DNA from: a virus
Lineage: Duplodnaviria > Heunggongvirae > Uroviricota > Caudoviricetes
DNA length: 45,334 nucleotides
Virus record (IMG/VR): IMGVR_UViG_2877251553_000007
Direction: 5' to 3' (one strand)
Position numbers: made by a program. The number at the start of each line of letters is the position of its first letter. Position 1 is the stretch's first letter. Below are positions 27,001 through 30,000 of this stretch, one piece after another.

Positions 27001-30000
27001 GCCCGCCGATGGCTTCACGTAACATGTCCTCCGCCTTGTACTGCTTGCCAAACAGCCACAACTCATCAATCAGCGTCCCCACGGACTTGATACCGGACAC
27101 CGTATTCGGATCGGCTGCCACCACCTTCAGGGTGGTGTCCGTCACCCGGTGGGTGATGGTCCGGATATGTGTCTGCACCTGACAGAGGTCATCCAGATCA
27201 TCGTCCCGTCGTACCATATCCCTGGCAGGATTGAAGGCGTTGGCTGCCACCTCCACAGTCGGGGCCAGAATCGTGTAACCCGCCGCCTGCCGCCAGTTCA
27301 GTAACAGCGCCGTCATCATGATCCCGGCGGCCAGTGTGGACTTGCTGTTTTTTTTGGGTATCAGAATGAACACTTCCTTGATATGGCGGACACCGGTCTG
27401 CGCATCGTAGGAGCCAAACAGAGCCGCCACCAGGTCAAACACCCACTGTGCACAGGACTCCCCGAACGTCGGGCTACCCGGTGCATCCACAATCCGCAGT
27501 TGTTTAAAAATCGCCAGGGCATGTGCGGCCTGGTCCGGATAAATCGGAGCCGGAATAATCGACAGCCCCTTTTTCAGGCGCTCTGCCCAGTCCGGGCAGG
27601 CCGTGCTCCATACAGGTATCATCCGTTGCCCTCATTATCGTTATTCACCACCAGTCGTGGTGGTGGTACCGCAAAACGGTTAGCCGCTTTTTTCGCGGCA
27701 TCACCTTTTGCCGATTTTTTACCGGCATCGCCTTTTTTATGGTGTGTGAACTGCGCCAGTCGCCAGGCCGCATCCAGTGCCAGTTTCGGATCAATGCTGA
27801 GGTTTTCCACCAGGATCTGCCCCATAGCTTTCACCGGATCGGGAAGACCATCCTCCATATATTCAATACCATGAGACATCACCGCGGGCGGTGGCATCTC
27901 CGGATTGTTTTCGTCCGGCTGTGGTATTGCAGCCGCCTCACGGCGACGGGGTTTATCCTCCTGCTCTGATTTTTTCTGCCGGTAAACAGGAACCTCATCC
28001 ACCTCCACCGTTTCGCACTGTTTACGGGCTATAAACGCGAGCACCTCCGGATCTTTTGCCAGCTGCGAGCCTTTAACCCTGGCGGTCTTCGCCGAATAAC
28101 CGGCGGCAATGGCTGACGCTGTTTTGTTTTTCCCGGACATGAGCGCCAGCGCAAATTTTCGTTTTTGCGTTGTCAGCACAGCCTCCTCCCGGGTCCAGAA
28201 CGCACTCAGCCGGGTATGGTTCAGCCCATTTTTCCCGGCGTCTCATGCCGCAAATGTTAACTGCTGCCTGGTTAACATTTTCTGAAAAAGCCAGTTAACA
28301 TTTTTTTTCGCACAACAAACTGAATAATAAAGATAAAAACCGCAAAAATGCCCGGACAGCCAGTTAACATGTTAACTGGCCTGAAACGGGAATTTTTTCT
28401 CTGCGTGAGAGGGGGCGCGGTGTCCAAAGCGATCGTTTTTTACGCCGGATGATACCCCCGGGGTCGGGTTACAGTCCGATGATGTCGTCCTCTCTGCCAC
28501 TACCTCCGGACACCTCCGGCAGCGTCGGGTCCGGCATATCACTCGCCGCTTCACGAGCAGACTTTTGTCGATGGCATTCGGTACAGAGCGTCCAGAGATT
28601 CGTCTCCTCATTACCACCACCGAACTGAAGTGCAATTCGGTGATCGAGTTCACTGTCACAGAGGTCAACCACACGACCACAGAGACGGCACTGCCCGGCG
28701 TCCCTGAGCCAGATATGACGCTTGAGGGAAACACGTGCACTGCCACTGACACGACGCTGTTCACCCTTCAGAATATTCACCCGTCGGGTATTCAGTGTTT
28801 TGATTCTGCTCTGGAGTGTACGAAGCTCAGCCATGTAAAATCCCCGTCATATGGCAATCAGTAAAGGAAATAAATATGTCATCGAAAAACCGTACCCGCA
28901 GAACCACAACCCGCAATATCCGTTTCCCCAATCACATGATTGAACAGATCAACATCGCCCTTGAGCATAAAGGGTCCGGTAACTTTTCAGCGTGGGTTAT
29001 TGAAGCCTGCAGGAGAAGGCTGGCAACAGATGCAACGCATCTGCGCCCGGCCAGCATGACAAATAACGAGAAATGAACGTTCGGTTACAGGAGCAGGTAC
29101 CCACTGTCCTCCAACAATATTTCATCTTCATATCCGACGGAACAAGACTTACCCTGCCGGGATGTACAGAATAACAACAGAGTGATAATTAATTTCTGAT
29201 GAAATAATCAGGGTGCGGAAGGACTAAAGATAAACGTTTTCTTCACGCCTTTACACGGCCTGTCCTTCTCAAATCGCCATTTTGCCATCGCCTTTACAAC
29301 CTGCTCATCAAACAGATGGTGCGGCTCTGAACGAATAAACTCAATTCGGGTGACAGTACCATCAGCACCAATATCAAACCTCACATCAACCCGTCCCTTT
29401 ATATAATTTGCCGCTGCATAGGCCGGATATTGTGGTAATGCCTTAACCAACTGTCGGGGCATATCTGTTTTATGTTGCGTACAGCCCATAACCAGAGAAG
29501 ACAACAAAATAATTAACGGAAGATTTCTTTTCATTTTCATTCCCCGCACAGATAAAAATAAGTCTTATTCTAACAATGCCGCCCTGTCGGTCATCAATCC
29601 TCTGCTTAATGGCAACGACAATTATCCGACTTAAATCACAAATCAGACACATGACATAACAGGGCTTGCGAGGTAACACATCGTCCTGTTTCTTCCACCA
29701 TCGCACCGGACTGGCGACTATGAGGGGACAACGCCGCGCTCCGTTAACGCGGTAAACCCCGGTGTGTATCGTTTTTGATTATCCCCGCACACTCGCGCAG
29801 AGGAGTCTCCCTGTCGGGCTGCGGTCTCTGTTAATGAGGGAATACAGCGACGATACGGCGCATCAGCAAAACTTAGTTCAGGCACTGAGTGCGGATATAG
29901 TCCTGTGCCCCTTCCAGCTGCTTCTGCATTGTCATCAACCGTTCTCTGAGGATGAAATAATCCCGTTCAGCGGTGTCTGCCAGTCGGGGGCCGGTTGCAT

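Follow-up and report, generated by a model that had tools for sequence, protein, structure and literature searches.

Between the genes for an HNH endonuclease and the small terminase subunit (terS) of the virus (Caudoviricetes) record IMGVR_UViG_2877251553_000007 lies an array of GTTAAC repeats, which we interpret, with a probability of about 0.7 and from sequence comparisons, as the cosB-like, terS-binding half of the cohesive-end (cos) site of a phage that makes 3′ overhangs with the help of its HNH protein. The whole 45,334-nt stretch of this record, an E. coli prophage of the Shiga-toxin type, was analyzed; it is hereinafter called the window, and all coordinates refer to it. The ends are known from a near-identical phage; that terS is the binder, that the DNA is looped and how many subunits take part are matters of inference. 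Such an array is a known kind of packaging signal in a form undescribed for this phage group, and it leaves the general picture of cos packaging unchanged. No description of the GTTAAC array or of the exact palindrome core that it contains was found in the literature. The relevant elements are ordered on the minus strand as HNH, a 289-bp gap (28468..28180), terS and the large subunit gene terL, and are listed here with distances (+) counted from the nick:

28469..28834, minus strand: HNH endonuclease gene (PF01844, E=3.7e-8), directly upstream of cos.
28455..28459, minus strand: G-run CCCCGGGGG, about 46-50 bp before the nick.
28410..28419, minus strand: cosN, the 10-nt 3′ cohesive-end sequence CGCGCCCCCT, placed by homology to the end of phage Lys8385Vzw.
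28393..28398, minus strand: A6 tract at +12..+17, found in nearly every relative whatever the type of its terS N-terminus.
28359..28380, minus strand: perfect 22-bp palindrome GCCAGTTAACATGTTAACTGGC at +30..+51, composed of two head-to-head ATGTTAACTGG half-sites.
28305..28358, minus strand: T-tract-rich spacer with a conserved core, TTTATTATTCAGTTTGTTGTG, at 28311-28331.
28291..28301, minus strand: half-site U2, ATGTTAACTGG, at +109..+119, oriented as the right arm of the palindrome.
28268..28278, minus strand: half-site U3, ATGTTAACCAG, at +132..+142.
28254..28264, plus strand: half-site U4, ATGTTAACTGC, at +146..+156, inverted with respect to U3.
27619..28179, minus strand: terS, small terminase gene (PF03592, Terminase_2, residues 2-57, E=1.2e-8).
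25961..27622, minus strand: terL, large terminase gene (PF03354 and PF20441), with ATPase and nuclease domains.

The five GTTAAC cores upstream of terS that a first-pass annotation had pointed out are borne out by the count: they begin at 28256, 28271, 28294, 28363 and 28371 (span 28256-28376), and the rest of the 45.3-kb window holds only 7 further copies. In 20,000 shuffled versions of the 289-bp gap with dinucleotide counts preserved, there were 0.08 copies on average and 3 at most, with none reaching 5. A looser test, asking for any hexamer with at least five copies, is non-significant on its own (247 of 3000 gap shuffles, mostly with homopolymers), because homopolymer runs inflate the count. 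The same annotation had also described a 20-bp palindrome and half-sites built on the hexamer; both kinds of element are present, but the palindrome extends over 22 bp and the true repeat unit, ATGTTAAC(TGG), is longer than claimed. The form ATGTTAAC/GTTAACAT occurs five times in the whole window, always inside the HNH-terS gap, and the 11-mer ATGTTAACTGG matches the five units with 0, 0, 0, 1 and 2 mismatches. We propose the palindrome as the primary site for the helix-turn-helix (HTH) domain of terS.

The position of the cut comes from Lys8385Vzw, a phage that was induced and sequenced from particles and that PhageTerm assigned to the cos type, with 3′ cohesive ends and CGCCCCCCCT as the cos, placed at the end of the genome (PMC7946995). 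The same work had already made public the cos end for this group of phages. The Lys8385Vzw record, whose last bases are ...GGACACCGCCCCCCCT and whose first bases are CTCACGCAGAG (CTCACGCAGAGAAAAAATTCCC), is about 94-96% identical to the window, with a terS 93.6% identical and a close intergenic region. We infer from it a 10-nt 3′ cohesive end between HNH and terS of the window, flanked by GGACAC (28420-28425) and CTCACGCAGAG (28399-28409), both conserved; the left genome end, +1, would be 28409 and the equivalent break 28410|28409. The cosN block is conserved in all relatives. The reading of the HNH-terS gap as a candidate cos or terminase-binding region of an HK97-type module is supported, with one correction to the position of the cut: the first-pass annotation had set this region at 28250-28380, and cosN lies outside that interval, about 30 bp from the palindrome on its HNH side. 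Because the cut maps to 28410-28419, the array occupies +30..+156 of the first-packaged end, and since the cut is outside 28250-28380 the array is the cosB-like part rather than cosN. A defined 10-nt cohesive end in a close relative, together with an HNH partner, sets the window apart from headful (pac) packagers, and the HNH-terS-terL order with a Terminase_1-type TerL is that of an HK97-like module. Almost all related loci have an HNH homologue ahead of terS. A stretch of 5-9 G, located some 45-60 bp ahead of the nick, is conserved across the related loci, those of E. coli and of Burkholderiales alike, as well as in the satellite described below, whatever the terS type; possible roles are a contact for terminase or HNH and an element on the termination side.

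Other candidate evidence on the cut was set aside: the end of the vB_EcoS_phi330 record sits at the terS end and looks like an arbitrary linearization, the Burkholderia phage records, which begin at various positions 21-60 nt ahead of terS, were left aside, and the cos of SfI/SfV (PMC3636060) is part of another packaging module. As a separate observation on this region, an IS110-family insertion sequence, ISEc20, ends a few bases from the G-run upstream of cosN in PPompW_699 (locus L152, LC567826.1) and other PPompW records, and these prophages are missing the lysis cassette and the HNH gene between the tRNA genes and the insertion sequence.

The terS gene starts with a GTG at +231 from the nick, preceded by a Shine-Dalgarno sequence, GGGAGGAGG, at 28182-28190, and the N-terminus of its product, MLTTQKRKF, aligns with those of relatives. 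An AlphaFold model of the monomer shows a four-helix N-terminal domain with a predicted local distance difference test (pLDDT) score >92 for residues 1-50, in an overall layout of an HTH (1-55), a low-confidence linker of about 58 residues (approximately 56-113), a helical hairpin (115-145) and a basic tail. In Foldseek searches the N-terminal domain matches the DNA-binding domain of SF6 terS (4zc3) with a template-modeling (TM) score of 0.84, a root-mean-square deviation of 1.6 Å and 30% identity, and more weakly the terS proteins of PaP3 and NV1, and phmmer gives weak matches to 4zc3 and 2cmp. As modeled, then, terS is an HTH protein of the SF6/PaP3 type (Terminase_2), a type from which the HK97 gp1 family presumably differs. 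In one terS, from the locus L083:1501-2208 (IMGVR_UViG_2671181134_000002), about 49 residues, comprising the last part of the HTH domain and the linker, are duplicated in tandem and in frame.

More distant relatives, collected as 55 loci by a scan of one genome per species with terS alignment, connect the repeats with this domain. Salmonella phage SP-016 and 17 enterobacterial prophages have a terS 41-49% identical to that of the window, and all 18 carry ...GGACACCGCGCCCCCT|CTCACGCACAGAAAAAATTCCCCTCTGGAGGGTGTAAACATGTTAACAGC..., in which GTAAACATGTTAAC / GT(A/T)AACATGTTAAC starts at a distance of 33 nt from the nick and spans the terS ATG; the window GTTAACATGTTAAC starts at the same 33-nt distance. 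The codons that follow this ATG are TTA ACA in 18/18 cases, as against TTA in 0/125 of the other Leu codons of those genes. The Burkholderiales relatives (terS 30-37% identical) have GGACACC-N10-CTCACGCGCAGAAAAAA and then TTGTTAATGGCTTTAACAG, and at their starts Leu is TTA in 21/24 (2.3% elsewhere) and Thr is ACA in 22/24 (10.8% elsewhere). This codon bias indicates a constraint on TTAAC at the level of DNA; in the window, where terS opens with GTG CTG ACA, the site is detached from the start codon. In the 45 relatives with an HTH-type terS, a GTTAA/TTAAC pair lies as far from the nick as in the window.

In the 10 remaining loci (L126, L130-L132, L134-L138, L140; Burkholderiales and related) terS has a Gly/Arg-rich N-terminus, MAGxxGRSGGxR, and no HTH, while its C-terminal half, the G-run and the cosN core are kept, most of them with an HNH homologue upstream. 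At least two GTTAA/TTAAC matches lie near the start in 43/45 HTH-type loci, as compared to 0/10 of the Gly/Arg type (Fisher p=2e-9), and the non-coding left half alone, searched in the relaxed form GT[AT]AA/T[AT]AAC within 20 nt of the start, separates them as 44/45 versus 0/10. The Gly/Arg-type loci instead share GAATTCAA just before the start codon, which looks like a DNA-recognition module swapped together with its site. Across these loci, then, the motif tracks the DNA-binding module of terS and not the HNH gene or the nick region.

These comparisons bear directly on the idea that the repeats bind a factor other than terS that aids cos, be it a DNA-bending host nucleoid protein or TerL/HNH themselves, an alternative that we regard as improbable. 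The cosB of phage lambda uses integration host factor (IHF), and the T-tract spacer, possibly an intrinsic bend or a host-factor site, has a conserved core, whose columns are invariant in the window, the P0039 variant and the satellite (both described below), and which holds a weak IHF-like match with 2 mismatches (28325..28313). However, GTTAAC is not the IHF consensus, and WATCAANNNNTTR finds no match at up to 1 mismatch in 28180-28468; at 2 mismatches there are 4 weak matches versus 1.5 expected. HNH is present in motif-bearing and motif-less loci alike, whereas the motif follows the terS N-terminal type, and a host factor is unlikely to be common to gamma- and beta-proteobacteria and yet be lost when only terS changes.

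The layout of these relatives suggests a history for the array. The ancestral state was likely a single imperfect palindrome over the terS start codon, as in Salmonella phage SP-016 and many relatives; in the E. coli lineage the terS start would have come to lie about 190 bp further downstream, with the palindrome perfected and extra copies present. Several GTTAA repeats after the cosN core and a displaced terS start are also found in a Paraburkholderia locus (L117) and a Cellvibrionaceae locus (L121). A broader proposal, which we put at somewhat less than even odds, is that this terS family co-evolves with a (G)TTAAC site that ancestrally lay over its own start, that module exchange changes the site, that at least three lineages, the E. 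coli Stx-phage group among them, freed and multiplied it, and that a family of terminase-less E. coli islands copied it as a 175-bp unit of cosN and array, presumably so as to be packaged by Stx-type phages. Were this so, the rare TTA codon would be kept even in high-GC Burkholderiales because the site overlaps the terS start.

Closer to the window, about 94 records of E. coli phages and prophages match the region at 93-97% identity, among them Shiga toxin (Stx) phages of the Stx1a, Stx2c and Stx2a types (BP-4795, 2851, 1717, YYZ-2008), and the cos region occurs in 1287/5426 complete E. coli genomes, with as many as 7 copies in a single genome. Among close relatives, represented by 51 unique sequences from 80 IMG/VR loci, the gap hardly varies over its entire length. 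The P0039 variant (locus L150) has a terS 64% identical to that of the window, with the HTH substitutions K17E, K19R, S22A, A30G and Q39R, and its palindrome, GGTGGTTAACATGTTAACCACC, is again a perfect 22-mer in which both flanks are changed symmetrically; the TGG-to-CAC flank change is found in U2 as well, and a sixth half-site is present. In another variant (L151), U3 and U4 are jointly changed to ATGTTTAC/GTAAACAT. Concerted changes like these agree with several sites being read by a single protein.

Two-sided changes of this kind also preserve the complementarity of the arms in P0039 and in the U3/U4 pair of L151, and the palindrome could form a 9-10-bp hairpin, with U2/U4 and U3/U4 complementary to each other. 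It might hence be argued that the palindrome and inverted half-sites act through secondary structure, either as late-mRNA hairpins affecting processing, stability or terS translation, or as a DNA cruciform. We consider this unlikely: the fold of 28170-28420 is no better than that of shuffles (z=-1.64; 12/200 fold as well), the gap has no intrinsic terminator and no Rfam match at E up to 1, and the imperfect 14-mer centered on the ATG in most relatives cannot form a stable hairpin. Moreover, U2 is a direct-repeat copy, and its share in the P0039 flank change is what matching to one protein predicts.

A natural copy of the region separates its parts further. In E. coli MS6198 (L143/L144; NZ_CP015834.1, about 1003500-1013000), an island of about 9.5 kb between cspD/yljB and clpS encodes an integrase, an HTH regulator, a YlcI/YnfO protein, an Icd-like protein, a RepA helicase and a protease-capsid fusion, and no terS, terL or HNH. 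Its end carries an 80%-identical copy of window positions 28426..28252 only (BLAST), which starts with GGACACC and stops right after the last half-site. Within this copy the cosN block is identical to that of the window at 39/40 positions and the five ATGTTAAC octamers at 38/38, as compared to 64/97 (66%) for the spacers (Fisher p=3.4e-6). Islands of this type are found in 50 complete E. coli genomes. Since the island has no terS downstream of its copy, the array is unlikely to serve terS expression, and the comparison favors a cis-acting role in packaging. We posit that the MS6198 island is a probable phage satellite that phages of this group package; satellites that carry the cos of a helper are well known (PMC5052747, PMC6092414). 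With a helper-type cos and no terminase genes, it naturally indicates which sequences are required in cis. No similarity was detected between its protease-capsid fusion and the proteins encoded in the window, so that no helper-satellite link is shown via the capsid, and no characterization of the island or of its helper relationship was found in the literature searched.

The island also speaks to the hairpin question, as it keeps the array without a downstream terS and with the octamers intact, the 16-bp core of its palindrome being identical to that of the window, while the palindrome flanks (TAG.../...TGC) are non-complementary. It bears likewise on whether the extra copies are dead duplication leftovers of an ancestral terS 5′ end (Shine-Dalgarno-ATGTTAAC), with only cosN being of importance. 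The palindrome does align with the ancestral terS start (MLT = ATG TTA AC.), and the true start, GTG CTG ACA, resembles a second copy. The ATG at the center of the palindrome opens a 32-codon open reading frame, MLTGCPGIFAVFIFIIQFVVRKKMLTGFFRKC (28370..28272, minus strand), which lacks a Shine-Dalgarno sequence and whose first codons, MLT, match the terS N-terminus; this frame seems to be a vestige of the old terS start and not a gene. As an account of the array as a whole, such decay is nonetheless very unlikely: the satellite, free of coding need, keeps the octamers (38/38) far better than the spacers (66%), its homology stops exactly after the last half-site, multi-copy arrays occur in the distant L117 and L121 too, and the palindrome is perfect in the window and re-perfected in P0039.

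The first-pass annotation had offered a second candidate binder, the product of a neighboring gene that it labeled 'RHH':

28876-29076, plus strand: gene labeled 'RHH', assigned by Pfam to DUF3950.

Genes for DUF3950 adjoin HNH in the window and its close relatives, the satellite encodes a protein of the YlcI/YnfO family, and one weak plus-strand promoter-like match is built from the repeats themselves; the repeats would in this case be operators of the divergently encoded regulator. That proposal finds no support in the 55 distant loci, where the motif follows the terS HTH type and tblastn detects no DUF3950 homologue within 1.5 kb upstream of terS (about 55 loci, 45 of them motif-bearing). 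The count of promoter-like matches, 2, is near the shuffle mean of 1.1, and the DUF3950-family gene of the satellite lies 6 kb from the array. YlcI/YnfO genes also stand beside lambda-type cos regions, which to our knowledge do not carry GTTAAC arrays, and we count this too against an operator function, to which we attach hardly any probability. Of the two proteins, terS is the likely binder on the comparisons given above.

Taken together, the island, the distant relatives and the P0039 variant point to a packaging element that acts in cis and is specific for terS. We accordingly return to terS and envisage the following course of events. With the HNH protein as its partner, TerL would nick the two strands in a staggered manner at 28410-28419, leaving 10-nt 3′ overhangs, and packaging would run toward terS and terL with the array on the first-packaged end. 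Two HTH domains of a terS oligomer may bind the 22-bp palindrome as a dimer-like pair, from where the bound terS, about 30-40 bp from the nick, would position TerL/HNH on cosN. Further HTH domains, on linkers of about 58 residues, could then capture the half-sites U2-U4 across the T-tract spacer, and these extra contacts would raise affinity and specificity and hold the terminase on the new left end.

Two neighboring genes of the window call for separate mention. The gene for a protease-capsid fusion (25897..24249, minus strand) has two 1-nt deletions, at about 25574 and 24260, one of them in a G-run; its counterpart in BP-4795, ORF56, is a single 645-codon capsid gene, which in the window is split and truncated by the deletions. 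Either the prophage copy is defective or these are homopolymer errors of the assembly. Between the lysis genes and the DUF3950/HNH genes, at 29208-29549 on the minus strand, lies a gene whose product, a putative lipoprotein of 113 residues, has a TonB C-terminal domain (PF03544, E=1e-14); it is annotated as 'protein TonB' in Lys8385Vzw and may be a moron gene.

Several observations weigh against the array being a cosB-like terS-binding element. The gap is 93-98% conserved throughout the E. coli phage group and hence displays no footprint specific to the array. The spacings of the GTTAAC cores, 8, 69, 23 and 15 bp, are out of helical phase, and the orientations of the half-sites are mixed. The symmetric and concerted changes in the variants are equally expected of a base-paired hairpin. 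With respect to the distant relatives, the covariation counts (43/45 and 44/45 versus 0/10) are phylogenetically non-independent, the right half-site is at the same time coding sequence of the HTH-type N-terminus, and A/U-rich codons right after the start also favor translation initiation. Further, the ends were mapped by software in a relative, Lys8385Vzw, and not in this prophage, and this prophage copy, with its frameshifted capsid gene, may perhaps not package at all.

If the broader proposal of a co-evolving, multiplied and island-copied site is true, the array defines which DNA these phages mobilize, and satellites that mimic cos might interfere with the spread of Stx phages. The packaging signal (cosN 28410-28419 and the array to 28252) would provide a concrete 175-bp candidate fragment for the mobilization of plasmids or islands by Shiga-toxin phages, and it would help explain how a family of terminase-less islands can ride on them. 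Additionally, the natural specificity variants (TGG, CAC and TAC flanks; the swap between HTH and Gly/Arg-rich N-termini) offer a tractable system for studying how HTH-type small terminases read DNA. The interest of the element rests mainly on the commonness of the group among Stx phages and on the island that copied its cos.

Among known systems, the cosB of phage lambda, with the gpNu1 sites R3, R2 and R1 and the IHF site I1, is the natural point of comparison. Lambda has 5′ 12-nt cohesive ends, and its cosB lies between the nick and Nu1. Like that cosB, the window array is situated between the nick and the terS gene on the first-packaged end, consists of several short repeats of mixed orientation split by a bendable A/T-rich segment over a similar overall span, and has as its presumed binder the HTH domain of a small terminase. 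Where a lambda-type cosB has at least three repeats between cosN and terS, the window has five ATGTTAAC units, to which terS would bind. In contrast to lambda and its 5′ ends, the module of the window has a 10-nt 3′ overhang and an HNH partner; its terS is of the Terminase_2 type with an SF6-like HTH and falls outside the gpNu1 family, the sequence of the repeats is unrelated, one element is a perfect palindrome and no match to the IHF consensus was found at up to 1 mismatch. By analogy, the array would thus work like lambda cosB without being homologous to it.

With HK97 the window shares the HNH-cos-terS-terL layout and the 10-nt 3′ overhang. The site of HK97 gp1 is a single 15-bp stretch at +15..+29 with an A-tract, read as the DNA leaves the central tunnel of gp1, and its terS begins at +50 (PMC11331095). 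The window likewise has an A-tract just inside the nick, A6 at +12..+17, on the same side as the HK97 terS site, but differs in its terS, whose SF6-type HTH is external, and in its sites, a palindrome and three half-sites distributed along some 125 bp. The terminases of PaP3, SF6 and SPP1 (6w7t, 4zc3, 3zqq) have an N-terminal HTH fold like that of the window terS; no GTTAAC-type site was found reported for these three in the literature consulted. For the cos phage PaP3, two neighboring HTHs of a nonamer were proposed to bind a site of about 20 bp in a dimer-like manner, and more such pairs could hold a DNA loop (PMC7672466), a model that fits the 22-bp palindrome of the window with its extra half-sites. 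SF6 and SPP1, however, are headful (pac) packagers, and the linker of the window terS, about 58 low-confidence residues, is much longer than in the PaP3, SF6 and SPP1 proteins. Finally, the cos satellites SaPIbov5, with phi12/phiSLT, and the E. coli phage-inducible chromosomal islands such as EcCICFT073 (PMC5052747, PMC6092414, PMC6739421) resemble the MS6198 island in combining a helper-type cos with the absence of terminase genes, whereas the MS6198 island differs from them in encoding a protease-capsid fusion of its own.

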